DNA from: Scenedesmus sp. PABB004
Lineage: Eukaryota
Length of the DNA: 64,000 nt
Assembly: GCA_014905635.1 (NCBI GenBank)
Contig: CM026547.1
Location: forward strand, 1,054,001-1,118,000
Direction: 5' to 3'
Made by a program: the position numbers and the translations under genes. Below, in pieces: positions 7,861-64,000 of this stretch (its first letter is position 1; the number at the start of each line of letters is the position of its first letter). The notes under the pieces were generated by a model, which was not told the DNA's origin, searched no databases, and saw nothing but the letters and a program-made list of their open reading frames with translations.

Positions 7861-9311
7861 ATGAGCGCATTCGCCAGTGCCAGTCGCGTCGGCGTCGCGC
7901 CACGCCGCGCGGGCGCCCACGCACGCAGCGGGGCCGCGCCGCGCCCCTCATCGCTGGCCGCGCGCCTCCGCCGCGGCCCGTCGGCGCCCCGGGGCGGCGT
8001 TCAGTTCGACGAGCAGTTCATGGCATCCCTGCAGGCCAGCCTGGAGCGCGAGGAGCACCGGGTGCGGACTGCGCCGCAACCGCCGCCGCTCGCGCGCCAG
8101 CAACGGCACCGCGCCCGCGCCGGCGCCCCCGCCGCCGCCCTGGCCGCGCCGGCCTCACCCCGTCCGCGGGCCCGGCGCCGGCGCAGATTGCGGAGAAAAT
8201 CGGCCTGCCGGGGCTGTGCCTGCACGAGGCGGTCGAGGACGAGGCGATCGAGGGCACCGGCGCGCTCATCTGGGCCGCCGGCGTGCGCCTCAGCCAGCAC
8301 CTCGTGCGCAACCGCGCGGGCGAGCTCAAGGGCGCGCGCGTGCTCGACCTCGGCGCCGGCACGGGTGCGCGGCGGCGCTCCGACGCGCGCGTGCGCGCGC
8401 CCGCCCGCCGCCCGGCGCCGCGCGCGCCCGCCCGCCGACGCGCCCGGCGCCGCCGCCGCCGCCGCCGCCGCTGGCCGCCGCCGCAGGCATCGTGGGCATC
8501 GCCGCCGCGGCGCTGGGCGCGCACGTGATGCTGACCGACACGCGGGAGATCCTGCCGCAGCTCTACGAGAATGTCAAGGCGCGCGCCGCGCGGCGCCGCC
8601 GCGCCGCCGGCCAGCCAGCGGGAGGGCCCGCCGCCGCAGCGCGCGCGGCATGCGAGCACGCCCGCCCACCCCGCAGGCGAACGAGGGGCTGATCGGCGAG
8701 AGCGGCGGCAGCGCGACCGTCGCGGAGCTGGACTGGCTCGACCCGGACGACGAGGTGCTGGACCAGGTGCGCACGCGGCGCGCCGCCGCGCCGCGCGATA
8801 TCCTGCCGGGGCCACAGCGCGCCGCGCCCGCCGTGCTTGGCGCACCGCCGACGTCGCGTGCGCGCGGCTCGCGGCACCCGCCGGCACCGTCGCAGGACTA
8901 CGACTGGGTGTTTGGCAGCGACGTGACGTACAGCGAGGAGGCGCTGGTGCCGCTGGCCAAGCTGCTGCGCCAGATGGTGCTCACAAACGAGGGCGCCGTC
9001 GTCAAGCTCGCGCACATGCACCGCAGCAAGGAGCTGGACAAGGCCATGCGCGAGGCCTTCCAGGGTGCGGGGGCGCTGGGCGGGGCCGGCCGCGCGGCGC
9101 GGGTGCGCCGGGCGCGGCGCGACGCGCCCCGCCGCCGCGCCGCGCAGACGAGGGCCTGCAGCTGCGCCCCGTCGACGTGCGCACCACGGGCACGACGGTG
9201 TACGACGACCCGCTGCACGTCGACGAGGCGATCGTGTTTTACCGCGTCGGCCTCGACCCCGCGCTGCGCGAGATCGTGCCGGACGAGGGCGCCGACGGCG
9301 GCAGCAGCTAG
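7861..9311 (+). CDS. METTL21-like (Methyltransf_16) SAM-dependent protein-lysine methyltransferase, 6 exons
   Basis: GTGALIWAAGVRLS, VLDLGAGTGIVGIAAA, LTD, ELDW and GSDVTY motifs; transit-peptide-like N-terminus; one GC-AG intron at 8579-8676. Confidence 0.9.
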
Positions 9312-9609
9312 CCGAGCGGGCGAGCCGGGTCTCAGCCGTGTGTGCGCGGACGCCGCGCGGCGGCGGTGACCGTCTGCCGCGGGGCGGCGGTGACTGCGAG
9401 ACGCCGCCGCCCCGGTTGGGCACACACAGCCAGGCGCGCCCGCAGTCAAAAACGCCGCGGCAGCTCCCCGCGGAGGCTTGGCGGCACGCCTCTCGTCCCA
9501 GCCGCCGCCCTCCCCGGCGGCCTGCTCCACAGTTGCCCTCGCCCGGGCGGCCGCGCGCGGGGTCGGTTGCAGCAGCCGGCGGCGCCGGGCCGCAACAGCG
9601 GCGCCGGCC

Positions 9610-12426: not shown

Positions 12427-12777
12427 GCCAGGGCAGGCCGGTGCGGGTGGAGCGCGGCGGCCGAGCGGGCGCGTAGTCGGACAGGGGCGCAGCCTCGGGC
12501 AGCGCACGTGCGGGCGGCCGTGACCCGTGATGAGCCCGCGCGCGAGCGCGCCGGCGAGCGCGCGCCGCCGCCGTCGCGGTGCCGAGTCGATGACGGGCGC
12601 GGGCGACCTCGTCGTGCACGTCCCGGCCGCGTGGGCGCTGGCGGCCGGTGGCGGCGCGTGTGTGAGAGGTGGGCGCGGTCACCGGCGATGGATCGTGTTG
12701 ACTCCCGCTGCTGCGAGTGCTGCGCGGCCCGGCGCTGGGCCGAGAGGCTGCGCAGCGCTGCGGGCGGTCGTCCCGGC
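12322..12777 (+). repeat. Copy A of a ~460 bp inverted duplication (3' CDS end and 3' flank of the DUF4485 gene)
   Basis: Reverse complement aligns by eye with 17467-17938, with scattered substitutions and small indels. Confidence 0.93.
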
Positions 12778-13086
12778 GCGGCCGCCACGGCGCAGGAGGC
12801 TGCAATGTGACCCGGGGCTTTGCGGCCGCTCGTCTCCCCCGCCACGAAGAGCGCGCGTCGCCGCCCCCTTCGCGCACCACGGGGACGGGGCTTTACCAGT
12901 AGCAGCAGCAGCAAGCACGCGTCAGACGCCGGCGGGCAGAGCGCGCAGCCTGGGCGCGCACTGCGGGCGCTGCGGCGAGCCCGAGCCGCACGAGGTGGGC
13001 CGCCCGCCGCGCCAGAGCACGTCGTCGCGGCGGCGCCCGCGTCGCCCGCCCGACGCCCGGCGCGCAGCGCTCGCAGAGCGCGGCCG

Positions 13087-16938: not shown

Positions 16939-16940
<2 letters not shown>

Positions 16941-18331: not shown

Positions 18332-21300
18332 ATGAGCGGTGGCGCCGCCGTGCCCGGCGTGGCGCCGGGCGCGCCGCCGCCCCAGCTGGGCGGCGGCGCG
18401 GGCCTGCCGCCGCTGCCGCCGGGCGCGGCGCAGCCGCAGCCGGCGCGCGCGCCGGCGGCGGCGGCGGCGGCCGGCGTGCGCATGATGCACGTCGTGGCGG
18501 ACACGGGGCGGCTGGAGCTGGGCGGCGGCGTGAGCTTTGCCATCCCGCTCTGGTACGACGACCTGGCCAAGACCGGCGCGGTGCCACGGTGCGAGGGCGC
18601 GGGCGCCGCCGCGCGGCGGCAGCGCGGCGGGGCGGGAGGGGCGGCGGCCGGCGGGCGGCGGGCGGCCGCGCGGTGCGCCGGCGAGCGCAGCGGCCGCCGC
18701 CGCCGCGCGCAGGTTTGAGGAGGTGGCCGTGATGCCGCCAGACCTGCTGCGCCAGCCGGTGGGGCAGGCGATGCCGGCGCTGGCCGAGGGCGCGCGCCTG
18801 CGCGCGCTGCTGCGCGGCCGCTGGCGCGCGGCGGCCAAGACCTTCTTCGCGGCGGCGCCGCTGGCAGACGCGCAGCGCGAGCCCGACAACGGCGCGCCGG
18901 GCGGCCAGCGCCAGCTCTCTGCGGCGGACGCCGCCGCGCTCGCGGCGTCCGCGGCGCTGCGGCACCGCCTGGTGCCCGCGAGCGAGCTGGACACGCCGGG
19001 CCACGCGCACTGGAGCGTTCTGGCGTACGAGCGCCAGCTGCGCGAACAGGCGGACGCGGCACAAGCGTCGGCAGGCGGCGGCGCCGGCGGCGGCGGCGGC
19101 CCGGGCTCCAAGAAGCGCGCCGCGGCGGCCGCGTTTGGCGGCGCGCTGGGCGGCACCGCGGCCAAGCGGCTCGCGGCGGAGCTGGCCGGGGGCGTCGGCG
19201 GGCAGTGCTGGTACGTGCCAGCCCAGGGCGACGCGCCGGAGCAGGTGCGGCGGCCAGGCGGCACAGGCTGCGTCGCGCTGCGCCGGGCGGCGCCGGCGGG
19301 GCAGCAGCGCCGGCACCCTGCGCTGCCCACGCGCCTCCGGCTGTGCGCGCCCGCCGCCGCAGGGCCCGGGCGCGGGGCGCAAGCGCACGCAGCACGCAGA
19401 CCCGCAGGCGCAGGCGGCCTGGGAGGATGCGATGCTGGCCAAGGCCTGGGCGGCGCTCGTGCGGCGCGACGTCCCGCGCGCGGCCCGGCTGGCCGCCGCG
19501 CGGCGCGTGGGCGCGCAGGCCGAGGCGGAGCGCCTGGCGGACGCGTGCGCGCGCGAGCTCCGGCTGCGCGCGGCCAAGGCGGCGCGGGAGGCCGGGTGCG
19601 TGCGCGCCGTCTGCCCCGCGGTCGGCGGCGCGGCGCGGCGCCCGCCCCCCCCCCCCCCCCCCCCACCACCACCACCACCACCCCCCTCTGACAGCACCCC
19701 GCCGCGCGCCTGGCGCCGACCCGCCCGCAGGCGCGGCGCAGCGGCGTCGCTGCGCCGCCTGCTGCGCGACGGCCAGGCGTGGTGGCGCGCCGCGGGGCGC
19801 GAGGCGGCGGGCGCGTCGCGCGCAGCCGCGCGCGCGGCGGCCGAGGCGGCGCGCCGCGCCGAGGAGGAGCGCGAGGCGCGGCGGCAGCAGCAGCGCCTGA
19901 ACTTCCTTCTCACTCAGACTGAGCTCTATTCACACTTTGTCAAGAGCAGGATGGCCGGCGGCGACGCGCCGGGCGCCACCACGCCGGCAAAGGCCGACGG
20001 CGCGGCCCCCGCCGGCGGCGGCGGCGCGCCGGGCGCGAGCCCCGCGCCCGCGGCGCGGGCAGCAGCCCCGCGCCGCCCGCGGCGGGCCTGCCGTTTGCGC
20101 CGTCGCCCGGCGGCTTTGGCACGCCGCCGCGCGGCGGCGGCTTTGCGGGGTTCAGCCTCGCCGGCGCGGGCGTCAACGCCGCCGACCTGGCGGACGACGC
20201 GGCCGAGGCGGCGCGGCTCGCGGCGGCGGCGGCGGCGCGCGCGCAGGCGGCCGCGGCGAGCACGTTTGGCGCCGCCGCCGAGTTTGATCGCGAGTATGTG
20301 GCCGGTGCGGCCGCCGTTGGCGCGGCGCCAGACCAGGAGCTTGAGGCGGAGCGCGCGCTGCGCGCCGCGGGCGAGGTGCGGCGCGCGTGCGCTTGTCTGC
20401 GGGGCGTGCGTCCGCGTGTGAGAGGAGAGGGGCGGGAAGGGGGGGGGGGGGGGCCTGGCTCGCGCGCCGCGCGCCCCGGCGCTCCTGGGGCCGCGCCGCT
20501 CACACGCCGCTCACGCGCCGCTCACGCGCCGCCGCTGCGCGCGCAGGCGGGGGGCTCGCCCGGCGCGGCCGGCGCCGGCGCGGCCGTCGACCTCACGCGC
20601 CCGTCGACGATGCCGGCCGAGGGCGGCGGCGTGGCGCAGCCGGGGAGCTTCCGGGGGACGCTGAAGGGCTACCAGCTGCGCGGCGTGAGCTGGCTGGCAA
20701 GCCTGTATGACCAGGGGCTCAACGGCATACTCGCGGACGAGATGGGCCTCGGCAAGACCGTGCAGGCGCGCGCGGCGCGGCAGCGCGGGCGCGCTGCTGG
20801 GGCGGCGGCTGCGCGGCGCTGCTGGGCGGCGTCGCACCTGTGGCGCGCGTGCGCGCGTCTGCGGCAGAGAGGGAGGGGGCCGACGCCCGCGCGCCCGCGC
20901 GCGCCCGCGCGCCCGCGCGCCCGCCCACGCGGCCGCGCCCGCGCGCCGCCGCCGCCGCAGGCGCTCGCGTTCCTGTGCCACCTCGCCGAGGCCAAGGGCG
21001 TGTGGGGGCCCTTCCTCGTGGTCGCGCCCGCGTCGACACTGCACAACTGGGACAAGGAGCTCACCCAGTTTGCGCCGGGCTTCAAGGCGCGCGCCCCGCG
21101 GCCGCAGCGCGCACCGCCGCGGCGGCGCCCCCCGCCTGCTGTGTGCTGCGCCGCGCCGTCGCCCGGTCGCCCTCTCCCCCCCTCCAACACACGCACACCC
21201 ACCCTCCCACACACACACACACACGCACGCACACGCACGCACACACACCCGCCAGGTGCTGCCGTACTGGGGCTCGCTCGCCGACCGCAAGACGCTGCGC

Positions 21301-22280: not shown

Positions 22281-25200
22281 GCGTGCGCGCGTGCGCGCGT
22301 GCGCGCGTGCGCGCGTGCGTGCATGCGTGCCCCGTCCACGCCGCCACGCCGCCACGCCCCTGCCTGCCCACTCGCGCGCGCGCGCCGCAGGTGACCATCC
22401 GCTGCGGGCTGAGCCGCCGCCAGGCGGCGCTGTACGGCGCGCTGCGGTCCAACCTCAGCGTCGCCGACCTGCTGGCCATGGGCGCCGCGCGCGCCGCCGC
22501 GGGCGGCGGCGGCGCCGGCGCCGGCCCTGGCCCAGGCGCCGCCGGCGGCGCCAAGACCGCGGGCATGGCCCGGCTGATGGGTCTGATCATGCAGATGCGC
22601 AAGGTGGGCGGGGCGCAGGCGGGCGGGCGGGCGGGCGGCGGGGCGGGCGGGCGGGTGCAGCGGGGCGAGGGCCGTGATGCGGGGCGCCCGGCGTGGGCTG
22701 CGGCGCAGCCCGCCCCACCCGCCCACACGCGGCGCGTGCCGCCGCGGCCGCTGCGCAGGTGTGCAACCACCCCGAGCTGCTGGAGGGCCAGGCGGAGCGC
22801 TGGCCGCTCACGTTTGCCACGCTTGCGCGCGAGTCGGACGCCGACGCCGCCGCGCGGCAGGGCGGCGCCCCCGCGCTGCAGGCGGCGGGCATTCGCTCGC
22901 ACCTGTCCGTGGCGCTGCCGCGCCTCGTTTACGACCAGGGCCTGCCCGGCCAGCCCGCGGCGGTGCTGGGCGGGCACCTCGAGGGCGCGCGCCAGCTGTG
23001 GCTGCGCCAGCGCCTGCAGCTCTTCCGCGACGCCCCCGTGCACGCGGCGGCCGGCGGCCCGCGCGAGCGGCGCGCGCAGCGGCAGACGGCGCAGCAGGAG
23101 CGCCCGCCGCAGCGCGCCGTGCTGGGGTTTGCCCCGGAGCCGTGCTTCATCAGCGGCTTCAGCTTCGCGGCGCTCGCGGGGCTGGCGCCGGCGGAGGTCG
23201 AGGCGGCGGCGGCCGCGGACCCCTTCCAGCGCTGGGAGCTCGCGTACGCCGCGCGGCGCGGGCGCGAGGCCGGCGCCGCGTGGGAGGCGCGCTGGGCGGA
23301 CTACGGCCTGGCCGCCGGTGACTGGGCGGCGCGCGCGCGGCAGCTGCGCGCGGCGGCGGCGGCGAGCGGCGCGGTCAAGGCGGAGCAGCTGCCGCTGAAA
23401 GCCGAAGCCGGCGGCAGCGGCGGCTGCGTCTCCCTGCTCGGCGGCACGCGCCTGGAGGTGGTGGGGGAGCAGGCGCACGGGGAGCAGCAGCAGGCGCTGC
23501 TGCTGCTGCCGCCTAGCCGCGCGGCGCTGGCGGCGGGGCGGTCGCTGCGCGGCCGGCGGCTGCTGGTCTGCGTCGACGACCTGGCGGCGGGCGCGGCGTG
23601 CAGCGTGAGCGGCGGCTCGCGCGGCAAGGCGCTGCGCCGCCCCCGCGCCGTGTGGGGCGCGGAGGAGCGCGGGCTGCTGCTGCAGCTGCAGCAGCACCAG
23701 GCGCAGGCCGAGGCGGCCGCGACGTCGGCGGCGCTGGGCGCGCTGGCTGCGCTCGTGGGCGGCGACGGCGACGGCGGTGGCAGCGGCCCGCAGCAGCTGC
23801 AGCCGCCCGCGGCCGTCGCGGGGCTGCGGGAGCTGGGGCAGCTGCTGCCGCCGCTGGTGCTGAGCGCGGCGCGGCGGCTGCGCGAGGCTGCGCCGCTGCT
23901 GCGGAGCGTGTGGGGCGCGGTCATCCCCCCGGTGCTCAGCCCGCCGCCGGCGCTGGAGGGCAGCTGCGCCGGGCTGGTCGCGCAGACGGTTGCGCTCGCC
24001 GCGGCGCCCTGGTGAGCGCGCGGCGCGGGCCCGCGCGCGTGCCGAGCACCGCACGGCGGCGCTGCTCACGCCGCCCTCGCCTGCGCGCAGGTCGCGCGTG
24101 ATGCTGCTTGGCGTCTGCAGCCACCCCGCCGCGCCCACGCCGCCCAGCGGCGCGCCGCCGCTGCTGGCGGCGCTCGCGGCCTGGCGCGTCGCAGACGCGG
24201 CCGCGGCGCAGCAGCCGCGGCCCGAGCCGTCCTGGCTCGCGGCCGCGCCGAGCGCCGGCGCCGGCGCCGGCGCGGCGGGCGCGGGAGGCACTGACAGCGG
24301 CAGCGGCAGCGGCGACGAGGACGAGGACGAGCCACTGACCACCGACGACTACGACTCGGGCTTTGCGCAGCAGCCCAGCGGGCGGCGCGGCGGGCGGGGG
24401 CGGGGCGCGCTGCCGCCGGTGCCCCGTCGCGGGGCCGCGGCCGGGGGCGCGGCCGCGGCCGGCGCGCGGCCGCGGCCGCGGCGCTGGGGCAGCCGCGCCG
24501 GCAGCGGGACGCCCCGCGCGGCGTCGCTCCCGGCGGCGTCCGCGGCGGGCACCCCGCCGCCGCCGGCGCCGCCGCCGCCGCCCCGCATGCACAGCTACGT
24601 GCTCACGCGGCAGCAGGCCGCACTCCCGGGCTTTTGCAGGGACGCGCCGCCGCCGGCGCTGGCAGCCCTGCCGGGCCTCGCGCCGCCGCTCGCCGCCGCG
24701 GGTGGCGGCGAGGCGGCGCAGCAGCTGTCTTGCGAGCTGCAGCTACAGCAGCAGTCGCAGCAGCAGCAGCAGGCCGGGCACGCCAGCGGCGCCGACGCCC
24801 CCCACGGTGGCGGCGCGTGCTTCCCGCTCGTGCTGCGCAGCGCCGTGCCGCCGCTCGCGCCGGCCGCGCCGGCGCCGCCGCCGCTGGCGCCCCGCCCGCC
24901 GGCGCGCGGGCTCGCGGCCCCGCTGCTGCGCGTGTTTGGCGCGGCGCCGCCGAGCCAGACGTACGCGCTGGCCAAGGCGCTCAACGCGAGCGGCAAGCTC
25001 ATGGCCCTGGACCGCCTGCTCGCGCGGCTCAAGGCCGAGGGCCACCGCGTGCTCGTGTTTTGCCAGGCGCGCGCCGCCGCCGCGGCGCGCCGCGCTCCGC
25101 CGCCCCGCCCCCCGCCGCGCCCCTGCGGCGCGGTCTCCCTCTCTCTCTCTCGCTCTGACCCAAAACCCTCGGCCCTCTGCCCCGTCCCTAAACCCCGGCA

Positions 25201-26839
25201 GATGACGAGCATGATGGACGTGCTGGAGGAGCTCTTCGCCCTGCGCCGCCACCGCTGGCTGCGCCTCGACGGCTCCACGCCCATCGCGGAGCGGCGCGAC
25301 CTCGTCGACGCGTGGCAGGGCGCCGGCGGCGGCGCGGGCGCGGGCAGCGGGGGCGGCGAGCCGTTTGTGTTCCTGCTGTCCACGCGCGCGGGCGGGCTGG
25401 GCATCAACCTCACCGCCGCAGACACAGTCATCTTCTACGAGTCCGACTGGAACCCAACCATGGACCTCCAGGCGCGCGCCGCGCCCCGCGCCGCCGTCGC
25501 CCCGCGCTGGCGCCCGCGCACCCGCCCGCGCACCCGCCCGTGCCGCCCCCCCCCCCCCTCCCCCCCCCCCCCCCCCCGCGCGCGCCCGCCGCGCCCCTGA
25601 CGAGCCGCCGCGCGCGCGCGCGCGCAGGCGATGGACCGCTGCCACCGCCTGGGCCAGACGCGGCCAGTGACGGTGTACCGCCTGGTGACGAGCGGCACGA
25701 TCGAGGAGCGCATCCAGTCCACCGCCGCGGCCAAGACGCACGTGCAGCGCCAAGTCATGGCCGGGGAGGCGGCCGGCGGCGGGGGGGGCGGGGGCGGGGC
25801 CGGCCGCGCCCGACGGCGGCGGCGGCGACGACGACGACGGCGACGACGACGCGGCGCTCGGCGGCGGCGGCCGCGGCTCGCCGTTGGGGGCGCGCTGCTC
25901 GTGGATGACGCGCCAGGGGCGGCGCTGGGCGCCGCCGACGTGGCCAGCCTGCTGCTGGACGACGACCTGGCGGCCGAGGCGGCCCGGCAGGGCCTCACGG
26001 TCGACCTCGCCGCGCTCGAGAGTGCCATGGAGCCCCTGTCCGGGCGCGACGCGACCCCGGGCGGCTCGGCTGGTGTTGTCGGCGCCGGCGCCGGCGGCCG
26101 CTTCACGCCCAGCCCGGCCGCCGCCCGCGGCGCGGCGGCGGCGGGCGCGCGCGCGGGCGCGCGCGCGGGCGCGGGCGGTCCCCTGGCAGCGCCGGCAGGG
26201 GGCGCGGGCGGGGGCGCAAGCCAGCCGAGCAGCCGGCAGGCCAGGCTGGAGCTGGCGGCTCGGAACCCTGGGGCGCCGGGTTGTGAACGCGGACAGCGTG
26301 TAACTGGAGCAGCAGCGACTTACAGCAACCCCAGGACAGCCCGCACCACGTCAGTTTGCAGTTTGCAACAAAAAGAGCAGGTGAAGCGCGGCGCCCCGCA
26401 GACGCGGTGGCGCGGCCGGTGCCGCCGCCGGTGGCACTGGCGCCGGCGCGTGCGCCGCATGCGTTGGCGATACGGGGTGGCCGCCACCATCGGCGCTCAC
26501 ACCCACACCATGATGATCTTATTCTCACCGGCCGCCGCCCGGCCGGTGCCGGGCCGCCGCCCGGCGCGGCACAGCGCCAGGCCGTTCATCTCCGGCCGCC
26601 AGGCCGCTCATCATCGTCCTCATCGCCACCTAGGCGGCCTGCCTGCCGCCGACTGCCAGCACAACTGTCAGGCCGTCCTGTCGGCGCGGCGAGCAATGCC
26701 GGCCGATGACGCTGCTGCTGCCTGCCAGCCTGAGCGACGCGGTACATGCGCCGCCAGCGCAGCCCACAGCCCACAGCCTCAGCCGCGTGTGGGCGCGTTT
26801 GTGCCCTCGTCCCGTCCCATCCCCCTCAGCAGCGGCTGA
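18332..26839 (+). CDS. INO80: INO80 chromatin-remodelling ATPase (SNF2 family, split ATPase); start and last exon boundary uncertain
   Basis: DBINO motif [67 protein letters not shown]; long insert; [55 protein letters not shown]. Four GC-AG introns and apparent frameshifts. Confidence 0.95.
21468..21537. repeat. 12-bp minisatellite (GTGCAAGGYGGR)x~6 in an INO80 intron
   Basis: Read directly. Confidence 0.85.
22214..22322. repeat. (GTGC)n / (GC)n microsatellite in an INO80 intron
   Basis: Read directly. Confidence 0.9.
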
Positions 26840-30700: not shown

Positions 30701-31773
30701 CGGGCCGGCAGGGGCTGCCAGCGCCAGGGTCGCGTCGGGGCTGGCCGTGGTGCCGCTGCCGCTGCCCTGGTTGTTGCCGGTCGGCACCAAGTGGTTTGAT
30801 TCGTAGTCGATGCAGTTGCACTTTGCGGTCGTCCCCACGGAGGTCTGGTTGGCGTATCCGCCGGCGCCAGTGCAGGGGACGTCGTCATTTGGTTTGTTTT
30901 GGTTGTTGCCGGTGCCGCCTGTGCCTGAGCGCTGCTGGTCCCAGGAGGTGCAGATCGGCACCATGAGTTTTCCGCTGGTGGGGTGGATGCGGGAGCAGCT
31001 CACAGTGATGTCCGCCGTCCCGCACGACACGGTGCCGCTGGCGTCGCCCGCCTTGGTGATGTCGCCGCACGTATCGTTGTCTGCGTTGACGAGGCTGCTG
31101 CCGCACGCGCCCCCGCCTGGCAGCACCGGCAGCGCCGACATGTGGCAGCTGGAGTTTGTGTTGTCGGGCGAGACGCCGTTCACGCTGCGCGGCGGCGGGT
31201 GGTGGCGCGCGAGCGTGGGCCGAGGGCTGAGCGACAGCTTCTGCGGGCCGCCGCCGGCCGCGGCGCTGCGAGCGCTCCACGCCCGCGGCGCGCGGCCGAG
31301 CGAGGCCTCGCTCACCCCACAAAGAGGCCAACCGCATAGCGTGTGTCGCCTTTGGTGGTGAGGCTCACGCGCACGCGGATGGTGGCGTTTGATGTAGGCC
31401 CGGTGCAGTTCCTCACGACCTCAAAACCTGCAGCGGACGGCATCAGCGCAGAGTGAGGCGACGGACGCGTGGTGCGCGCGCAGCGGCGGCCGGGGCCGGC
31501 CCCGCCAGCACGCCAGCACGCACTCGCGACGTCCAGGGTCAGGTCTTTGGCGTTGCAGTTGGGGGGGTTGCCGGCCGTCATGCAGCTCTTGCCGCTCACA
31601 TCAAGCCAGACGTCAGGCGCGGCCACGCAGTTGCACTGCGCCTGCGCCAGCCGGCGCCCCGCCCACGCCGGCACGGCGGCGGCGCCTGGGGCGCCGAGCG
31701 GCCGGGCGGCGCCCAGGGCGGCCAGAGCCAGCAGCCCCGCCAGCGCCAGCTGGGCGCGTGGGACGGACATCAT
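27728..31773 (-). CDS. Secreted Thr/Asn-rich surface protein with a Cys-rich N-terminal domain and ~5 DUF11/DUF7507-type Ig-like repeats
   Basis: Signal peptide (MMSVPRAQLALAGLLALAALGAA) plus RRLAQ; repeats VTFTLTINNTGN, DQITFTATLTNTGN, VTYTIIALNTGN, VTCTVIITNAGN, VTYTAVVSN; several GT-AG introns; ends FQCPPP*. Confidence 0.85.
29507..29591. repeat. (GCGGG)x17 intronic pentanucleotide repeat, strong G-quadruplex potential
   Basis: Read directly. Confidence 0.95.
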
Positions 31774-44400: not shown

Positions 44401-47400
44401 CGTGCTCGCGCCCGACCGCTCCGTCGCGCAGCTCATCCTGCAGGCCAAGGCGCGCCGCGCCGCGCCGCGCCGCGCCGCGCCGCGCCGCGCGCCGCCACCG
44501 CCGGCCTGGGTCGCCCCCGGCCGCGCCGCGCTCCGCGCCGCGCCGCGCGGTTTTGCTGACCGCGCCGCGGGGCGCAGGTCTTCTACGCGGCCAGCTGCAC
44601 CGCGGCCGCGGCGGACATGAAGCGCGGGGTGCTCAAATACGTCTACGACACCGCCGGCGCCAACGCGACGCTGCAGCTCTTCGTCAGCTCGACGGGTGCG
44701 CCGCGCGCTCGGGGCAGCCCAACAACTCGGGGTCAAAACGCGCGGACGTGCGGGGTCAAACGGTGTGCTTCCGACCCCGGGGCGCCGACCCCGCGCGCAG
44801 GCTCCTCCTGGGGCGAGGTCCCCCCCGCGCAGGGCGGCGTGGTCGTGCCCTACATGGGCAGCTACGCCCTCGACGGCGGCGGCGCCGCGGGCGCGGGCGG
44901 GCGGCCGGGCGCGTCGTTCGGCTACGCCGACTGCCTCAAGTGGGGCTACCGCGACGCGATCCGGCTCGCCGCGTTTGACGCGACGCAGGCGGCCGACATC
45001 CTGGGGCTCGACCTCGCACGCGTGCGCGCAGCGGCGGCTGGCGGCTGATGCATCACGCCCCGCGGCGGCGGCTGAGCGCGGCGCCCGCGGCGCCGACACC
45101 CGCCCGCCCGCGCGCGCACGCACACGGCGGCGCCGCAGGACATGGAGACGCAGCTGCTGGTGACCTCGATCGACGGCGAGGTCGCCGGCCTGCCGGGGTT
45201 CTTCGGCCCGGCGCAAAAGACGCTCGCGGGGTGCCAGTGCAGCCAGGCGTGGCCGTACAATGCAAGCGACGGCACCGTGACGGTCGTGCGCGGCGCGTGC
45301 ATCAACCCCGGCGCCGACCCGCGCGGCGCGTGGTGCCGCTACGCCCCCGACAGCTGCACCAACGCGAGCGGTGCGCGCGCGGGCCCCGCAGACCGCGCGG
45401 GGCGCCTGCCGAGGGCGCGCGGCCGCAACTCTCACGCCGCCGCTGCGCGCCGCTTGCGCGCAGCCGCGGCCAGCGCGGAGTGGGACTACTGCGCGCCCAC
45501 GGTCACGCTGTCGGGGTGCCGCTGCCACCCGAGCTGGGCGCTCGGCGGCGAGACGCACTACGGCTCGTGCGCGTCGGACGGCGACCCGCGGGGGTCGTGG
45601 TGCGTCGTCGACCGCGCAAGCTGCCCCGGCCCGCACCGCGCGCACCGCTTTGGCGCGGAGCACGCCATCAACGCCACGGTCGGCGGCGGCGCCGCGACGC
45701 TGACCGGGCTGGACTTTGACTTCTGCCAGACCACCACCGTCAACGGCTGCCACTGCCGCAACGCCTGGGCCTACGCCGGAGACACGCACGCGGGCACGTG
45801 CCGGCAAGGCCTCGCGGGCGGCGGCGCGCTGCCGGGGTTTAGCGCCGCCACGCCCTGGTGCTTCGTCGACGGCGTCGACGGCGGCACCTGCGCGGGCTCG
45901 GGCTACGTTGGGGGCCACATGGTCGACATCTGCACGCCCGAGGGTGGCCGCGTCGCGGTGTCGGGCGCGGCGTGCGAGCTGCCGGCGAGCTACGGCGGCG
46001 CGCTGATGTACGACTGCCTCGCCTACAACCTCACCGCGCCCGGCGGCGCCGCCGCGGCCGCGGCGCCCTGGTGCTTCACCAACGCGACCGCGGGCGCGCA
46101 GGAGGCGTGCGCGCCGTGGAGCTGCGGCGCCGCGGTCAGGCGGGCCTGCCCGCCGTTCGACCCCGCCGCGCCGCCGCCCGACGCCGCGCTGCCCGGCTGG
46201 GCGGCGCCGGCCTGCCTCGAGGCGCTGTGCAGCGCGCGGCAGGCGCTCGCCAACATCAGCCAGTGCGCGGCGACCGACGGGCCCGCCGACCGCGCGGCGC
46301 TGGCCGGCGCGTACTCGTACCTGGCCGCCAGCCCCGCGTTCGGCGCCCTGCTCGCCGGCGCGACCGGCGCCGCGTCGCTGGGCGCGCACTGCGCGGCGGC
46401 GTCCGGGGAGCTGTGCGTGGACGCGCTGCTCGACCCGGCCTGCCCCGCGCTCTACCGCGCGGGCAATCGCTGGTTCATGGACGCCACGCCGGCGGGGCTC
46501 TGCGACACGGGCTGCCTCACCGCGCTGTGCCGGCTGCAGGAGGCGGCCAAGGCGAGCGTCCAAGGCACGCCGAGCTGGGAGCAGCACGTCGCCGCGGCGC
46601 GCGGCTTCTCGCCGCCCGGCACCGTGTGCGCGGACGCGGCGCTGGAGACGCTCGTGCGCTGGACGCTCATGGCCGAGATGGACCGCTCCTGCGGCTGGCC
46701 CGGCCCGGCCAGCCTCGCCTGCAACCGGCTGCTTTCGGAGCCGCAGCTCTGCGCGGCCGAGACCGCGCTCACGGCGCTGGCGGGCGACGTCAGCGACGCC
46801 GTGCCGCCGGGCGGGCGCTACGCGCCGAGCAGCGCGTGCGCGTGGACGGTCAGCACGCCCAACCTTCCCTTCATCACCCTGAACTTCACGACCTTTGACA
46901 CGGAGCCCCTCTACGACGTACTCACGGTCGAGGTGGGCCGGAAGGGCGCGGCGCGGCGCGGGGCGGGGCGGGGCGCGGCGCGGCGCGGCGCGCACGCACC
47001 TGCCTTGGACCGCGCGGCGCAGCGGGCCGTGGCTCGCCGGCGTGGCGCCTGACAACGGCCCGCCGCCGCCGCCGCCGCCGCCACGCCGGGCAGGACTCTG
47101 ACGGCGTGATTGGCATGTTCAGCGGCGACGCGCTGCCGCCGGCGCTGAGCACCGACACGGGCGTCCTGCGGCTGCGCTTCGTGTCGGACTCGAGCCTGCA
47201 GCGCGGCGGCTTTGCCGCGAGCTACTCGGCGTCGGCGAGCCCCCAGGTCGCGCTGCCCGCGTGCGGCGCGCGGGAGAAGCTGGTGCAGGTGGTGCTGCGC
47301 AGCCGCGCGTACGGCGCGGAGCTGAGCTGGCTCGTCACGTCGCGCAGCAGCATCGCCGCGCTCAACCCGCCGAGCGCGCTCAACATCGTCATGGCCGGTG

Positions 47401-50471: not shown

Positions 50472-51377
50472 TCACGCGCTGACGCCGCCGCGGGTGTCGG
50501 CGTAGAGGGCGCTGGGGGGAAACTCGTAGTAGGCAGCAACGAACTTGGCCTGCGAGTGCAGTGCACGCGGCGGCTCAGCAGACAGGCGGCATGCGCCCGG
50601 CGGCCGCGCGCCGCGCAGCGCTGTCGGCCGCGCGCCGCCGCGCCTTGGCCTCGTCGGGTGAGAGGCCGCTGGCCGCGGCCCACGCGTCCCAGCGCGCGCG
50701 GCCCTCAAAGTCGAGCCCGCCGCCGCGCTCCGCCCACATGGGGCGCTCGGTCGCGTTGTCGCCGGCGGTCGCCTGCTGCGCGAGGCCGTAGAGCCTGCAC
50801 TCGGGCGCGCGGGCGCGGCGGACCGGCTTGGCTGGGCGGCGCGCCCACACGCGCCCGTGCGGACCTGGTCACCCGCGCTCGCCCGCGTGGCCGTCCGCGC
50901 CGCCCCGCGCCGCGCGCGCGCGCGCGCGCGCCTGTAGAAGTGGTCGGGCTTGACCGTCGCGCCGCCGGGCTTGCTGATGAGGCGCCACTTGAGCGACTCG
51001 TAGCTGCCCGACAGCGCCTCAAACTCGGCCGCGTCGTAGCTGGCCTTGGCGTGCGGCGAGCGCTCCGCCGCGCTGCCGCGCCCGTCGCCGCCGGCGGCCG
51101 CGGCCTCGTCGCTCGCGGCGAGCGCCTTGCGCAGGCGGGTGCGCGCGGCTGCGGCGGCGGACGGGCATCGGCGGCGGGCTGGCGTTGCCAGCGGCGGCAG
51201 CGGCGCGCCGCCCGCGGCAGCCTTCGCGCCCCCAGCGCCCCCACCGCGCAGCTTCTGGCGGTCCTCGCCCGGGTGGTCGTCCAGCCAGGCGGCCGCCGCG
51301 ATGGCGGCCTCAAGGGCGGGCACAGCGTCGGCCGCCTCGAGCGCGGCCGTCGCGGCGCTCGCGTCGGGGTGCGTCAT
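50472..51377 (-). CDS. Acyl-CoA-binding (ACBP) domain protein with N-terminal extension, 4 exons
   Basis: Spliced FYRLYGLAQQATAGDNATERPMW...DFEGRARWDAWAAASGLSPDEAKAKFV matches the ACBP pattern; two GC-AG introns. Confidence 0.85.
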   Translation of the reverse strand: MTHPDASAATAALEAADAVPALEAAIAAAAWLDDHPGEDRQKLRGGGAGGAKAAAGGAPLPPLATPARRRCPSAAAAARTRLRKALAASDEAAAAGGDGRGSAAERSPHAKASYDAAEFEALSGSYESLKWRLISKPGGATVKPDHFYRRARARARRGAARTATRASAGDQVRTGACGRAAQPSRSAAPARPSAGSTASRSRRPPATTRPSAPCGRSAAAGSTLRAARAGTRGPRPAASHPTRPRRGGARPTALRGARPPGACRLSAEPPRALHSQAKFVAAYYEFPPSALYADTRGGVSA

Positions 51378-52579: not shown

Positions 52580-54875
52580 CTAAAAGTACAGCCGCTCCTC
52601 GTCGTCAGGAGCAAAGGGCCCCGTATCGGCGGGGAACAGCGCCGCCGCGGCCGCGCCGCGTGCCAGCATGTCGCCGCGCACCAGGCGCGCGCCGCTGGCG
52701 TCGCTGCCGGCCTCGCCGGCGCCGCCCAGGCCCACCAGCGACTGGCAGGACGCGGCGCTGGGCGCGCTGCTCGTCGCGCTGCAGGGCGAGCCGCCCTGGC
52801 CGTCCGCGGCGCCGCCGCCGGGCATCGACCCGAGCGGCGGCGCGCCGTCGCCGCCGCCGCCACGCACGGCGCAGCGCAGCCGGCTGGGCCGGGGCGGCGC
52901 GCGGCCGGGCAGCGGCGCGTCGGGGCTGGCGTCGCTGCTGTCGAAGCAGGGGCCGTCGATGACGCAGCTGCTGCCGCGCGCAAACGCCTGCGCATCGAGC
53001 AGCACCGCGTAGCCGCTGCCGCCGCTGATGTGGCAGCTCGTCGCCTGCGGGCGAGCGCGGGCGAGCGCGGCCGGCGCGCGTGTGACGGCGTGGCGGGCGG
53101 GGCGGGCGGGGGCGGCCGCGGCCTCGCTGCGGCGGCGCCGCCCCGCAGGCGCACACGTGCGCGCGCGCGCGCACCTCGCACGTCGCCGCCTGCCAGAGCC
53201 ACACGCCGCCGGCGCAGCCCGTGACCTCGACGTGCTTCAGCACCGCGCTGCCCTCGTCGCCGACCTCCACGCCCGCGCCGCCGCAGCCCGCGACGGTCGT
53301 GTTCGTCGCGTGCAGCGCGCCCCGCTCCAGCACCACCAGCCCGTCCGCGCCGGCGTCGGCGACCGTGCAGCCCTCCAGGAAGGCCTGGGCGCTCTCGCAC
53401 ACGAGCATCGCGTGCTGCCCGCCCGTGAGGCTGCAGCGCCAGAGCGTGGAGCTCGACGACCCGGCCTGCTTGATGCCGCAGCGCCGCGCCTGCGCGGCGC
53501 GCGCGGGGCGGGCCGCGGCGGGCGGCCGTCGGCGCGGCGCCGGCGCGGCGGCGGCGGCGCGCGCGCCGCGGCCTCGGACGCGCGCGCGGCGCGGCGCGGC
53601 ACGACGCGGCGCGGCGCCCGCGCACCACGATGGTGCACCCGTCGAGCAGGGGCTGGGCCTTGCCACCGACCGCGAGCGCGTCGTCGCCGCTGCACGAGAG
53701 GCGCAGGCAGCGCAGGACGGGCTTGATGCGCGCCGAGGCGTGGCTGACGCACACGGCCTCGCAGAAGCCGACCATGTCGACGGTGAAGTCGCGCAGCACG
53801 CAGCACCTGGCGGGCGGGCGGGCGGGCGGGGGGACAGACGGCGTGCGCGGGCAGGGGCGGGGGCGGGGGCGGAGGCGGGGGGACGCGTCGGCGGCGCGGC
53901 ACGCGCAGGTGAGTGTGTGCGAGCGTGTGTGCAGCGCGGCGCGCGCGTGCAGCGCGGCGCGGCGCCTGCGCACGCCTGTGGATGGCAAGGGCCGGCTGGT
54001 TGGCGCGGTGGTCGAGCACGACCGCGGCGGCGTCGCCGCCCAGGCCCTCGACCAGCACGCGCTGCCGGACGGTCAGCGTGGCCTGCGCGGCCGGGGCGCA
54101 GGCGGCGGCTCGGGCGCCGCGGCGCGGGCGGCGCGGGCGGCGCGGGCGGCGCGCGCGGCGCGGGCGCGGCGCGGCGCGGGCGGCGCACCTGCGAGACCAC
54201 GTGCGTGCCGGGCAGCAGCTGCACCACGTCGCCGTCGACCGCCGCGGCGAGCGCGTCGGCGAGGCTCGTGAAGCTCAGGCCGCCCGCCGCCTCCGCGCCC
54301 TTGTCGCCCGGCAGGCCCAGCCACACGGTGCTCGCGTCGCAGGGCAGCACCTGCGCGGCGCGGTGGGCGCGGCGCGGTGGGCGCGGCGCGGTGGGCGCGG
54401 CGCGGTGGGCGCGTCGCGGCGGGCAAGCCGCGCGCGGGACACGCGTGCGCGCCGGCGCCGGCGCCGGCCGCACCCGCAGCGTGCGGCCGTCGAAGCCGAT
54501 CAGGTCACCCGCCGCGGCGGCGTGCATGCAGATGTCGTCGACAAACTCGGCGTGCGCGCTCGCGCTCCTGCGGCGGGTGCGGCGGGCGCCCGCGTCGGCC
54601 GAGGCAGCGCCGTGCCGCAGCGCGCGCGCGGGCACCACCCCAGCGCCGGCGCGGCCCAGGCGTGTGTGTCGCGGCGCGCCGGGCCCGCACCCGCCAGAGG
54701 CAGCAGCCTGGTCGGCGCGCGCCGCCGTGAGCGCCGCTGCCCACTGCTTGGTCTCGAAAAGCCTGCGCGGCGGCGCACCGGCTGCGTTGGCCTGGGCTCG
54801 CGCTCGCAGCGCGGCTGCCGGGCGGGCGCGCGCCTCGCACCTGCGCGCTGAGGAGCTGCGAGCGTGTGCTGCCAT
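52580..54875 (-). CDS. Right-handed beta-helix (pectin-lyase-like, SKIP5/FBXO11-type repeats) protein, ~8 exons
   Basis: SLADALAAAVDGDVVQLLPGTH; repeats LEGCTVADAGADGLVV, NTTVAGCGGAGVEV, HVEVTGCAGGVWL; no signal peptide; one GC-AG intron; ends EERLYF*. Confidence 0.82.
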
Positions 54876-58400: not shown

Positions 58401-61400
58401 CCAGGCCCTGCGCGGGGTGTCAGCGGCGTGCGGCGGCGCGGTCACACGCACGCACACCCGCGCGCGGCGCCGAGTCCGTCTGAGCTGGGCGTCACCAGCC
58501 CTCCAGGGCCAGCCCAGGGCAGGGCTCCTGCCTCGCGGCGCGCCGCCCCCCGCTGAGCGTGTGCACGCGCCTTTTGGATCTCCTCCAGCAGCTTATTGGC
58601 CTCCTCGAGTCGCGCAACGCGCTCGGGGTCGTCTGCGAGGCCGAGCACGCTGGGCGCCGCCGCCGCGGCCTCCATGAGGTCGCGCCACGCCGTGTCCGCC
58701 TGCGCGGCGGCGCGGGGCACGCGGCGCGGCGCGGCGGGCTCCTCAGCCCGGCGCCCGGCGCCGCCCCGCGCCGGCCCGCCGCGGCTCGCCGGCCCGCCAA
58801 GGCCTCTGCGCGCCGGCGCCGCGCGCCGCGCCTGCGCAAACTTGTCGCCCTCGTCGGGCATGTGCCTGAGGACGTCGGGGGCGCTGAAGATCGGCCCCAG
58901 GTGCTGCCACGCCGCCTGGCAGGCGAGCCAGGCGCTGATCAGGTCCTGCGCGGCCAGCAGGCGGCGCTCCCAGGCGAGCAGGTCCGCCTCGAGCGGCTTG
59001 ATGAAGGCGCTCGCCCGCATCGCCTGCGTGCGGACCACCTGGTCGTCCAGCAGCACCTGCGCGCCGGCGGCGGCGGCGCAGCACGCCGCAGGCTGGTCAG
59101 TGGTCAGCGCAGGCAGCTGAGCAGCTCGCGCCGGCGCCCCACGCGCGCGCGCGCGCCTGCACGTCGTCGGTGCCGCAGATGACACTCGTGCCGGAGTCCT
59201 TGTACTCCGCGATGCGCAGCGCCACGCCCTCCCAGTCGGCCTGCATGCGCGCGAGCGCCGCGTCCAGCGCCGCCTCCTCGCTCGCCGCCGCGCCGACGCC
59301 GCGCAGGCGCTCGAGCTGCTCCAGCAGGTCGAACTGCAGCAGCTGCCGGATGCTGAACGACGCAAAGCCTGGCGCGGGCGGCGCGGTTGGAGCGCGCCGG
59401 TCGGGGCGGCGCGCAGCCCGCACCGGGTCCGCCGCTGGCGGTCGCAGCCGCACCCACCCCGCGGCGCGCCGCCGCACCCGCGCCGGTGTCGTCGCGTGGC
59501 GGGATGTCTGCGCCGATGATGTCAAACATCTCCCGCCAGTGCCGCGCCCGCAGCGCGGGGTTGCCCAGCTCCGCCACCAGCGGCAGCAGCTCCTGCGGGC
59601 GCCGGCGGTGGCGGCAGAGGCGGCGGCGGCAACGGCAGCAGCATGTGAGGGCCGCGCACGTGTGCGCGCGAGTGCACGAGCGCGGATGTGGGAGCCGGCG
59701 GCGGCGCGCGCACCTTGAAGTCGTCCACCACGTCCTTCAGCCGCGCCGCGACCGCGTCCTGCGCGCGGGCGCCCGGCGCAGAGCGGCGTGCGGCGGGGGC
59801 GGTCAGGCTGCACGCAGCGAGCGGCGTTGCGCGAGCCCGGCCGGCGCGGCGCGCGCGGGCAGGTGCACGCACGTCCTTGTTGGCCTTGACGGCCCTGTCG
59901 GCCTTGGCCGCGTAGTCGTCCACCTCGGCGCGGACGGACTCGACGTCGAGCAGCACGCGGCCGTCGTCGTCCAGCACCGGCTCCTCCGTCCAGCTCCGGC
60001 TCTGCTCCAGGAAGTCCCGCACGTTGCGCCACAGCTGGCGGGCGCGGCGCGCGGCGCGGCGTCGGCGTCGCCCTGCCCACCGCGGGGCTCTTGGGCGCCC
60101 CGCCGGCGCGCGCGCAGGCTGCACGCAGCCCAACAAACAGGGGCTGCGTGCTGCTGACAGCGTGCGCAGCGCGGGTCACCTGGTACCGCGCATTGACCTC
60201 CTTCTCAGTGACCATGAGTGCGCCGAGGTCGTCCGGCGGGGCCTCAAAGAGGGCCAGGTAGGTGTTGTACTGCCCCAGCGCCTCGCCCAGGCCGCTCACG
60301 GACTGCAGCAGCGCCTCCAGGTCCGCCACGACCTCGTCGGGGTCCGCCGCCGCGTCGACGTACTTGCCTGGCGCGGCAGGCGGCGGGCGGCGGTGGCGGT
60401 GCTGGGCGCGAGCGCGGGGCGGCGGGCGCCGGCCGTCGCCGTGCGGCCGCACCCGCGTGCAGGCCGTCGGTCAGCGCCGCGAGCTCCTCGTTCACCGACG
60501 CCACGCTTGCGGCGAGCGTGGCGGCCTGGGCCTCCCTGTGGTCGGCGATGAACTCCTTGCCCTGGCACGGGACAAGAGAGGAGGGCAGGGCAGCGGGGGC
60601 GGCAGGGCGGGCAAGGGTCGAGGTTTGGTGGAGTGGCGCGCTGTGGCGCGCGGCAGTGCGGCGCGCGGGCGCGCGCGGGCGCGCGGGGCGCGCGCGCCTC
60701 TGTGAGCTGCGCCTGGAACGCGGCGAGCGCGTCGGTGAGGTCGTCGTGCTTGACCTGGTCCGCGGTCGGCACCTTTTGCTCGTGCGCGGCGAGCGACTCA
60801 TACATGTCGTCCACCTGGAGGGAGGGGCGGCGCGTGGGCGTGGTGGGGCTCTCGCCGCGACCAACCTGGAGCTCCAGACCCGCGCCCGCAAGCCCCTGGC
60901 GCGCCGGCAGCCCGCGCGGCGACGACCGCACGCGCGTCCGAGGGAGGCCCGGCGCCGCACCGCCACGCCGCCGCACCTGGCCGACCTGGCTGGAGAGCAG
61001 CTTGCGGTCGTTGAGCTGCGCCGCGTGGAGGGACATGTAGGCCACAAACTCGTCCAGCTGCGCGGGGCGCGCGGCGAGCATGGCGCTGCGCGCGGTGATG
61101 TCCTCCAGCACCGCCAGCGTCGCCTGCGCGCGGCGGCGCAGGTTGCGGCGGGGGCGCGGGCGCACGCGGTGCGCGCCCGCCGGGCGTCGGCCGGCATCGC
61201 GCGCACGCGCGCGCACCTGGCGCGCCATGTTGAGGAGCAGCAGCTTGATGCGCTCCAGCGCCGCCGCGGTGACGGGCACGAGCTCCGCGCGCAGCGGCTT
61301 GGCGTCGATCTGCAGGCAGCCGGCGGCGATGCTGGTCCGCATGCGCTCGAGACTGGCCTTCCAGTTGCGCTGCATGACCAGGTCGCGCCGGATCTCGCCG

Positions 61401-64000
61401 AGGCCGCGCGGCTGCGCCGCGTACGCGTCACCGTCCCAGGTGCGGCCAAAGTCCCAGACCTTGCGGTAGCCCGCCTCCAGCTCCTGGACGCCGGCGGGGC
61501 GGGGCGGCCGGGCGGCCAGGGAGGCGGGCGGTGAGCGGCGAGCTCGCCGCTCGAGCGGCGAGGTGCGAGCGCGAGGGGCCCGCCGCGGCGCGCGCGCTGC
61601 GCAGCGTGCGGTGTGAGGGCCGCCCCGCCCCGCGCCGCCGCGCCGTGCCGCACCCGCGCCGCGTCGCGCGCGGCGGAGAAGTCGTCGATGATGGCCTGGT
61701 TGATGGCGCCGCGCTGCGACAGCAGGCGCGGCGTGGACCGCAGGATGGCGAGCGCGTTGAGCCCGCTGGGCTTGCCCTCAAACAGGTGCGCAAACGCGCG
61801 CATGAACAGCACACGCGGCGCGCCCTGCCGGGGTGCGGGGCGGCGCAGGGGTGGGGCGGGACGAGGGAGGTCGGCGGGGCCCCAAGAGGCCAGAGCGCGG
61901 GCGCTCGGCGCGGCGTGGGCCTCCCAGGCGCGCCTGCACGACCGACAGGATGCCCTCCAGCGTGTTGGCGTTGACCGCCTCCAGCACGGCCGCCTCGGCC
62001 GGCGCAAACGACACGCCGCCGCGCTCCTCGAACGACACCAGCACCGTGAACAGAGCCTTGGCCTGCTTGTCGCCCTGGCGCGCCAGGCAGCGACAAACAG
62101 CGCCTCGGCGCGCGCGCTGCGTTGGCTCTGATCACCCGTCGCCCACACACACGCGCCCGGGCGCCACCCCGCACCTGCTGCTTGTGCGCCGTGAGCAGGG
62201 CGAGCACGTCGTCCACCGCCGCGACCGCGGCGGCCATGAGCCCCTCGACGAGCAGCAGGTCGGCCAGCCGCACAAACGCGCCCAGCTGGCCCAGCTCGGC
62301 CATGACGCGCGCGTAGTTGGCGGCGCGATCGACCTTCTCCTGCGCACATTTTTGCACGCGGGCAGCGTGTGCGGACGCGGCGCTCAGCGGGCAGCGCGCG
62401 CTCCGCGGGGCGGTCCCCCGCCGGGAGGCCCCGCGGCTCTCCTTGGCACGCGGCCGCCCCCAGCACGCCGCGCCGCGCCGCGCCTGCTTTATGACCACCA
62501 TCGGCCGCGCCCGCCCGCCGGCGGCGCCGCCGCCCTGGAAGGGCTCCACGCCGGTCGTGTCGGCCAGCTCCGCGGCGTCGCGCACCGACTCGGCGTACAG
62601 CGCCGCCTGCGCCGCGACGTCTCGGCACAGCCGCTCGAGCGCCTGCGGGCAGGCCGGTTGGGGGCGGGGTCGGCGCCCGGCGCCCGGCGGCTGCGCTGCC
62701 GCCTGGCAGGAGCGCGGCTGGGGCCGCGCGACAGACTGGCAGCGGGCCAGGGGGCCACTGATTGGGTACCTTTTGGACTTTGTCCACGATCGCGTCCAGC
62801 GCAGGCTTGGCCTTCTGCTCCCGCGTGGCGACCTGCAGCTCGCCATACTCCTGCGCCGCGCGCGCCGCCGCGGTGGGCGCGGCACGCGCCGGCGGCGCCC
62901 CCGCGACCCTACGCCGCCCGCACCTGCAGCGTGTACGTGTGGCTGGGGTTGGCCCACGCGAGGCTCACGCCGCGCAGCTGCGCGGCCGCCGCCGCGACCT
63001 CGCGCAGCGTGGCCGCAAACGTCAGCCGCCCGCCAAAGAGCTTCGCCTCCACCTGGGCGCGCACGCGCCTGAAGTTCTTGCGCCGCACGCCCTGCCGGCG
63101 CCGGGAGCGGGCAGCTCGTGGGCACGGCGCGGGGGCGAGGCGCGGCCGCAGGGCGCAGCGGCGCGGCGCGGCGCGGCCCCCGCCGCGCGCCGCGCGCCGC
63201 ACCCGGTGCCAGCGCCCAAACGCGCGGCGCGTGAGGAAGTGGCGGAAGAAGCCGATGCGGCTGACGGTGTCAAATAGGCTGCTCGACCGCACCCACGCCG
63301 CGAGCGGCACAAACTCGGCCGCCGCGCCGCGGCGCACCGCGACGACGCCGTTGGCGGACAGCGTGAAGTACTCGGGCAGCCGCCCGAGGCCCTCCCGCGC
63401 CGCGACGCGCAGGTCGTACGGCCGGAAGCGCGCGCCCTCCGGCGCGCTGGGCGCGGGGACACGGCGGCGCGGCGGCGCGGCGGCGCGCGTGTGGGCGGGC
63501 GGGGCGGGGGCGGCGGCCGCGGCGACCCTGCGGCTCAGCGCAGCGCCCTGCTGCGTGCCGCCCGCCCGCTCACCGCACGCAGTAGAAGAACTTGACGGGG
63601 CTGTCCTGCCCGTGGCGGCCGTAAAAGGCGACCACGTCCTCCCCCGTCACCACGCCGGGCACCGCGTCGGGGTCCGCGCCGCCGGGGGCGGGGTCGGCCG
63701 GGGCCGCGGCCGGCCCCCAGCAGCCGCCCGGGCTGCCGCCGCCGCCGTCGCCGGCATCCACGTCGGCCGCCTCGCCGGCCTCCGCCTCCCAGTCATCACC
63801 AGGCTGCTCCGGCGAGTCGGCGCGCGGGCGCTCCGCGTCCGACCACGCGTCGCGCGCCGCTGCGGCGCCGTCGTCGCCGCATCTGATGAGCTCGCCGCGC
63901 GGCTGCGGCTGCGGCGGCGCATGCTCCGCCGCCGGCCGGATCGGCCCCTCGCCCGACTTGCGCAGGCTGGCGGCGACGTCCGGCAGCCGCGGCACGTGCG
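55494..64000 (-). CDS. Axonemal inner-arm-type dynein heavy chain, C-terminally truncated after a degenerate AAA1; 5' end outside the window
   Basis: Tail FRPYDL...[10 protein letters not shown]; linker [82 protein letters not shown]1 [25 protein letters not shown]; stop after [10 protein letters not shown]; about 30 introns. Confidence 0.92.

Follow-up and report, generated by a model that had tools for sequence, protein, structure and literature searches.

GC-AG introns following exonic AG are frequent in a 64-kb nuclear window of the GC-rich green alga Scenedesmus sp. PABB004

GC-AG introns account for ~1% of human introns (PMC3167603) and for 0.3-2% of introns in plants and metazoans (a figure cited in bioRxiv 10.1101/2024.10.30.620910). 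Considerably higher shares are in print for GC-rich algae. In the haptophyte Emiliania huxleyi, GC-AG junctions comprise 56% of 241 curated ones, nine being confirmed by reverse transcription PCR, and the authors attribute this share to the 65% content of guanine plus cytosine (G+C), ab initio and GT-based predictors failing there (PMC4028052). In the pelagophytes Aureococcus anophagefferens and Pelagomonas calceolata, the shares are ~14-17% and ~14%, respectively, also attributed to high G+C, and a low-GC relative has 0.32% (bioRxiv 10.1101/2024.10.30.620910). Here, we consider a window, that is, a stretch of 64,000 nucleotides (nt) from the green alga Scenedesmus sp. PABB004 (assembly GCA_014905635.1, contig CM026547.1, positions 1,054,001 to 1,118,000 of the forward strand), in which ~15% of predicted introns carry a GC donor, each preceded by an exonic AG. 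It is highly probable that these are U2-type introns starting with GC instead of GT in a very GC-rich green-algal genome, and it is plausible that their high rate results from GC pressure together with compensation. A sequence-only reading of the window had listed the same sites and treated their frequency as unusual; within this window that view holds, while the novelty was overstated, as shares of 14-56% have been published for a haptophyte and for pelagophytes with high G+C (PMC4028052; bioRxiv 10.1101/2024.10.30.620910).

The window resembles E. huxleyi in combining GC-rich algal nuclear DNA with a large share of GC donors and a canonical AG acceptor, and differs in that 56% of junctions are of this type at 65% G+C there, whereas ~15% are at ~79% G+C here, in a green alga. 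Therefore, the rate is not determined by G+C content only. In the passages of the E. huxleyi paper that were considered, we did not encounter a strict dependence on exonic AG like that observed here. The pelagophytes have the same GC-AG rate as this window, but they are stramenopiles with 0.1-0.9 introns per gene, whereas here there are many introns per gene, all short and of rather uniform size (median 127 nt, range 71-1334 nt), with a CGCAG/G-like acceptor (here and below, the slash marks the exon-intron boundary). The G+C of the window is very high, as in the GC-AG-rich algae, ranging from 73 to 81% across 4-kb steps, with zero N.

Animal and plant GC-AG introns are similar to those described here in being U2-type and in having the remaining donor positions nearer to the consensus than in GT introns, but their frequency is roughly tenfold lower. 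Their consensus is GCAAGT-like rather than GCGCGC. In Ostreococcus lucimarinus, whose intron-poor genome has a few strong-signal introns, the donor consensus is GTGCGTG, so that the atypical GTGCG core is common to this alga and the window; the difference is that the text of that paper contains no 'GC-AG' (PMC2483917). We found no green-alga paper with such a GC-AG rate, although the supplementary per-species tables of PMC6310983, which lay outside the search, could hold values.

Introns were predicted with a self-trained gene finder that combines codon log-odds, donor and acceptor matrices and phase-aware dynamic programming, the two strands being reconciled. Its seed consisted of 21 homology-confirmed junctions (14 GT and 7 GC, that is, a GC share of 7/21) and 4.8 kb of homology-supported exon. 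The finder predicts 122-125 introns (~123) in the window, compared with the ~110 estimated by the sequence-only reading. The number of predicted GC donors declines from 31 at the fitted prior of 0.25 to 20 at a prior of 0.001. All 18 sites listed in that reading are predicted at every GC prior, including 0.1%, and also with a donor matrix derived from the 93 GT introns only. In a decoy control with equal priors, the calls were GT 92, GC 23, GG 4 and GA 3. Therefore, approximately 4-8 GC calls could be noise, in agreement with nine extra GC predictions (5055, 7463, 19983, 24385, 25779, 26149, 35629, 40150 and 55509) that were not counted, 7 of the 9 being without exonic AG. These nine are located in poorly conserved or gene-boundary regions and mostly look like model errors; one of them, 40150 (cag/GCGAGC), may be a real donor.

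At all 18 sites the exonic AG is followed by GCGCG, or by GCGTG in the case of 53975, and AG is present at the predicted acceptor of every GC intron. As a class, the GC donors are borne out by homology and by the ab initio model. For two of those on the minus strand (~38296 and ~53976) the sequence-only reading had named the last exon base, the donor G being at 38295 and 53975. The motif AGGCGCG, with 70 copies on the two strands, carries little information and on its own proves nothing. When no splice matrix was used, copies situated at a sharp coding-to-noncoding step comprised 12/70 for AGGCGCG, 9/35 for AGGTGCG and 18/1220 for six control heptamers; at the 18 donors, the third-position G+C periodicity stops.

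For the homology test, ungapped tblastn matches were chained, every frame-keeping combination of a GT or GC donor with an AG acceptor was tried around the break, and the joined peptide was scored against the reference protein in BLOSUM units; 13 of the 18 sites were tested. The GC model yielded a gapless junction at 12 of these (the exception being 44169), and GT alternatives scored below GC in all informative references at 12 sites. The junction is pinned to the GC dinucleotide by many references at seven sites, and by fewer or weaker references at five more.

For all four INO80 introns the GC model outscored every GT model in each of the 7-8 references, the margin over the best of these being 18-32 units. 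At 20766 (8/8 references), the GT at 20760 was worse by 20-21 units, and the gapless junction, where GLGKTVQ is followed by ALAFL, is identical to the Tetradesmus protein P0003 over 16+6 residues. The junctions at 21087 (8/8 references; best GT worse by 20-28 units) and 25067 (7/7; 25-32 units) were gapless as well, and at 25472 (8/8; 18 units) the 32 residues spanning the junction show no difference from P0003.

In the dynein heavy chain gene, the GC model was gapless and best in 10/10 references at 58570 (by 11-27 units), at 58831 (by 27-48 units) and at 59156 (by 2-20 units over the GT located 6 nt upstream). In the less conserved N-terminal part of this protein, only the closest homologue, P0136, is informative, and the nine other references are at noise level at each of its three sites. 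P0136 prefers GC by 40 units at 60697 and by 15 units at 61933, both junctions being gapless, and by 22 units at 62483, where the alignment is ungapped at the junction and has a gap of three residues 13 residues farther upstream. For the clostripain-type gene, P0273 prefers GC at 44450 by 20 units, with a gapless junction and the other references at noise level, and at 42940 GC was best in 8/8 references, the junction being gapless against P0272.

For 8579, 38295, 50643, 50931 and 53975, the homology support is formed by Pfam or PDB coordinates, or there is none. The ACBP core exon (50644-50793) is matched along all of its 50 residues by Pfam ACBP positions 26-69, and over residues 1-49 by solved ACBPs. 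This end-to-end match fixes both borders of the exon, with the acceptor of the 50931 intron on one side and the 50643 donor on the other; the exon upstream of the 50931 intron had no significant match among solved structures. At 8579, the upstream exon is matched in Pfam as far as residue 29 of 30 (profile 59-89) and the next-but-one exon begins near profile position 118, which leaves a 30-residue exon for ~28 profile positions. At 38295, the Pfam MRC1 match continues to the very end of the upstream exon. No Pfam match was obtained for the exons flanking 53975, and overall several flanking exons had none even at E up to 10.

The dominant GT donor of the window is G/GTGCG(C/G), the hexamers being GTGCGC (n = 38), GTGCGG (n = 19), GTGAGC (n = 11), GTGCGT (n = 6) and rarer ones, and the GC donors are GCGCGC (n = 12), GCGCGG (n = 4), GCGCGT (n = 1) and GCGTGC (n = 1). 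Thus, these counts confirm the proposal of the sequence-only reading that a GC donor is the GTGCG(C/G) donor with T replaced by C at +2. The other regularity it had proposed, that all GC donors follow an exonic AG, is seen at 18/18 sites (a partly circular figure, see below), compared with 32/96, or one third, of GT donors (p = 4.5e-8); from the side of exons, GC is used by 18/50 of those ending in AG and by 0/64 of the others. As G is present at +3 and +5 in 18/18 and C at +4 in 17/18, the GC donors match the GT-donor consensus more tightly than the GT donors themselves do, which again is partly circular, the set having been picked with the motif in mind. Phase 0 is observed for 15/18 GC introns, following CAG, AAG or GAG codons, and for 45/96 GT introns (p = 0.005). 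This excess fits codon usage, because third positions are nearly always G or C, and hence an AG end falls mainly at a codon boundary. The two classes are of similar intron length, the median being 137 nt for 27 predicted GC donors (the 18 and the nine extra ones) and 124 nt for GT donors.

The minor, U12-type introns have a donor of the /RTATCCTT type. This class was rejected, as none of the hexamers GCGCGC, GCGCGG, GCGCGT and GCGTGC contains ATCC. At 20760, 59162 and 61939 there is an in-frame GT exactly 6 nt upstream of the GC donor, in the form gtgcag/GCGCGC, and such sites could yield isoforms two residues shorter.

In the reading that we favour, pressure toward G+C, by mutation bias or biased gene conversion, would turn T into C at donor position +2, and this change would be tolerated solely where the other contacts of U1, U5 and U6 are at the consensus (A-2, G-1, G+1, G+3 and G+5). 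Such a limit of tolerance would lead to the accumulation of GC donors at AG-ending exons, and no change in small nuclear RNAs (snRNAs) would have to be assumed. AG/GCGCGC would pair with U1 by as many bases as the typical non-AG donor GG/GTGCGC, and this equality would explain the AG rule without an snRNA change. Erosion by GC pressure is plausible and matches the proposals published for other algae. The interpretation offered by the sequence-only reading is partly supported, in that the GC donors, the twin consensus and the AG rule hold. An Rfam scan of the window revealed no RNA family and no snRNA. Metagenome relatives retrieved with the helicase-C exon as a query (80 loci, 43-63% identity, G+C at most 69%) had no intron at the two junction positions among 72 and 80 spanning loci, respectively. 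A bolder version, in which +2 is effectively free (T or C) after AG-ending exons in this green-algal lineage, maybe giving the top GC-AG share in Viridiplantae and possibly via changed U1 or U6, seems to us doubtful, if conceivable.

Several points weigh against the preferred reading. The share itself, 18 (perhaps 19, if 40150 is included) of ~123 introns, comes from a single 64-kb window, the direction of change from GT to GC is our inference, and pairing was considered with the canonical U1 5' end, not with the U1 of this alga. The 18/18 figure for exonic AG is partly circular, as the sites were chosen partly by AG/GCGCG and the matrix of the model rewards AG. The sites 44169 and 53975 are carried by the gene model alone: at 44169, the GC model scores 97 against P0273 and a 42-nt GT intron scores 100, the alignment being gapped at the junction. 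At 42940, a GT 9 nt downstream (42949) is nearly equal, the advantage of GC being 1-13 units. Within genes, the strand bias of AGGCGCG (37 sense, 30 antisense) is not significant. Finally, the motif is not sufficient, as on the sense strand AGGCGCG is a donor 17 times, is unused in predicted exons 14 times and is intronic three times. Being a donor only half the time, it indicates that GC donors behave as weaker, context-dependent sites. The sense-strand counts for AGGTGCG are 21 donors, one exonic copy (in a total of 36.7 kb of exon) and two intronic ones, which suggests selection against cryptic GT donors in exons and none against cryptic GC donors.

If the spliceosome itself were altered, with a variant U1 5' end, U6 ACAGA box or Prp8 accepting C at +2 (and at +4 and +6), GC donors would be equal to GT ones. 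The consensus GTGCG(C/G) is already off GTRAGT at +4 and +6, and Irimia and Roy regard changed snRNAs as a possibility in Ostreococcus, with its GTGCGTG donors (PMC2483917). However, in this case GC donors should also occur after exons not ending in AG, where none of the 18 is found, while 64/96 GT donors are, and the frequent unused exonic copies of AGGCGCG, as opposed to the single exonic AGGTGCG, fit a weaker site. We consider an altered spliceosome quite unlikely. The GC donors could also belong to regulated, inefficiently spliced introns, with retention or alternative 5' sites, as has been proposed for some animal GC-AG introns and for E. huxleyi, where non-canonical splicing is tied to frequent intron retention (PMC4028052). 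The weaker pairing of GC donors and the three in-frame GTs 6 nt upstream, with their possible two-residue isoforms, are in line with that, but the sites fall within catalytic motifs that are invariant in INO80 and dynein, so that isoforms would not function, and regulation of this kind is unlikely.

It is also necessary to consider annotation artefacts, that is, a nearby GT being used in vivo at the cost of small protein indels, or the segment being kept as coding. In DNA with 80% G+C open frames constrain little: for each of 13 sites there are 4 to 24 frame-compatible, stop-free GT-AG or retention models, several introns are stop-free multiples of three (e.g. 25067-25201, 135 nt), and 44169 and 42940 are truly ambiguous. 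On the other hand, the GT alternatives would insert or delete residues within invariant motifs that the GC junctions restore without gaps at 12/13 sites, every informative reference ranks them below GC at 12 sites, and the coding periodicity ends at these donors. Artefacts as the general explanation are thus very improbable.

Given the preferred reading of genuine GC-AG introns, gene prediction is directly affected. A run without GC donors is worse by 259 log-odds units, and in it the model moves to GT sites that insert or delete residues, e.g. 20760, 59162 and 42949; it drops two residues of GKTVQ (ATPase motif I of INO80), skips the entire ACBP core exon and has no intron near 25067 and 58831. 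The expectation that standard predictors mis-annotate these genes is therefore borne out by the GT-only run.

The genes of the window and the coordinates of the GC-AG introns are collected in the table. The gene list was obtained by running Pfam on open frames with G+C periodicity; the third-codon-position periodicity flags many short exons on both strands. At this G+C, open frames of 200-1200 codons are present in all six frames, and the antisense frame whose third positions coincide with those of the true one looks like coding sequence. The window is nuclear DNA whose nearest relatives at the protein level are chlorophycean green algae, so that the source is read as chlorophycean-like; the closest relatives of its INO80 are two Tetradesmus obliquus proteins (61% identity), followed by those of other green algae and plants. 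Between the two ATPase lobes, INO80 has a long Ala/Gly/Gln-rich insertion exon (22759-24011, plus strand), whose single relative found in the database, P0001 (924 residues, 32% identity), is distant. The DUF7507/CARDB-like repeat gene, whose domain families occur mostly in prokaryotes, sits in the lowest-G+C part of the window (73%). For the peptidase exon of the clostripain-type gene, the named relatives are bacterial, mostly actinobacterial, except for the eukaryotic P0273, which has both Peptidase_C11 and CUB; a bacterial origin is possible. The dynein homology ends at residue 1655 of the 4234-residue homologue, in AAA1, after [15 protein letters not shown] (55494-55772, minus strand), with an in-frame stop a few codons past the end. 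No further dynein similarity was found anywhere in the window, and the next gene on the same strand (downstream to 52580) is the beta-helix gene; such an end could reflect truncation of this gene copy, a highly unusual gene structure or a join made in assembly.

Table. GC-AG introns and genes of the window, with strand and source of evidence.
Feature	Coordinates	Strand	Evidence
GC-AG intron, METTL-like gene (donor aag/GCGCGC)	8579..8676	+	ab initio at all priors, Pfam
GC-AG intron, INO80, right after the GLGKTVQ codons (ATPase motif I)	20766..20960	+	homology
GC-AG intron, INO80, SNF2 domain	21087..21255	+	homology
GC-AG intron, INO80, ahead of the helicase-C exon	25067..25201	+	homology
GC-AG intron, INO80, between ...NPTMDLQ and [10 protein letters not shown] (AMDR)	25472..25627	+	homology
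GC-AG intron, MRC1-like gene	38165..38295	-	ab initio at all priors, Pfam
GC-AG intron, clostripain-CUB gene	42940..43068	+	ab initio at all priors, homology
Putative GC-AG intron, clostripain-CUB gene	44169..44292	+	ab initio alone
GC-AG intron, clostripain-CUB gene	44450..44577	+	ab initio at all priors, homology
GC-AG intron after the ACBP core exon	50550..50643	-	ab initio at all priors, Pfam and solved ACBPs
GC-AG intron before the ACBP core exon	50795..50931	-	ab initio at all priors, solved ACBPs
Putative GC-AG intron, beta-helix gene (donor cag/GCGTGC)	53807..53975	-	ab initio alone, all priors
GC-AG intron, dynein heavy chain	58408..58570	-	homology
GC-AG intron, dynein heavy chain	58700..58831	-	homology
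GC-AG intron, dynein heavy chain	59057..59156	-	homology
GC-AG intron, dynein N-terminal region	60562..60697	-	homology (P0136), ab initio at all priors
GC-AG intron, dynein N-terminal region	61825..61933	-	homology (P0136), ab initio at all priors
GC-AG intron, dynein N-terminal region	62340..62483	-	homology (P0136), ab initio at all priors
Methyltransf_16 (METTL-like) gene	~8.0-9.3 kb	+	Pfam
DUF4485 gene		+	Pfam
INO80 gene, domains DBINO, SNF2 and Helicase_C	18.3-26.6 kb	+	Pfam
DUF7507 repeat gene	27728-31773	-	Pfam
SET gene		-	Pfam
Methyltransf_11 gene		+	Pfam
MRC1-like gene		-	Pfam
Peptidase_C11 and CUB gene (clostripain-type)	41.5-50.2 kb (41488-50234)	+	Pfam
ACBP gene		-	Pfam
Beta-helix gene		-	Pfam
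Dynein heavy chain gene	55.5-64.0 kb	-	Pfam

Gene predictors restricted to GT donors, or with a heavy penalty on GC ones, would damage approximately one in seven introns here, and for this genome and its relatives they should be trained with GC donors included. With this window, a green alga joins the haptophyte and the pelagophytes as a further case, with no new kind of mechanism. The sharp rule, under which GC is used only after an exonic AG and mostly in phase 0, makes the idea of compensation testable and, if freedom of the +2 position after AG is true, it would be a clean natural titration of the U1 and U6 contacts that a splice site needs.

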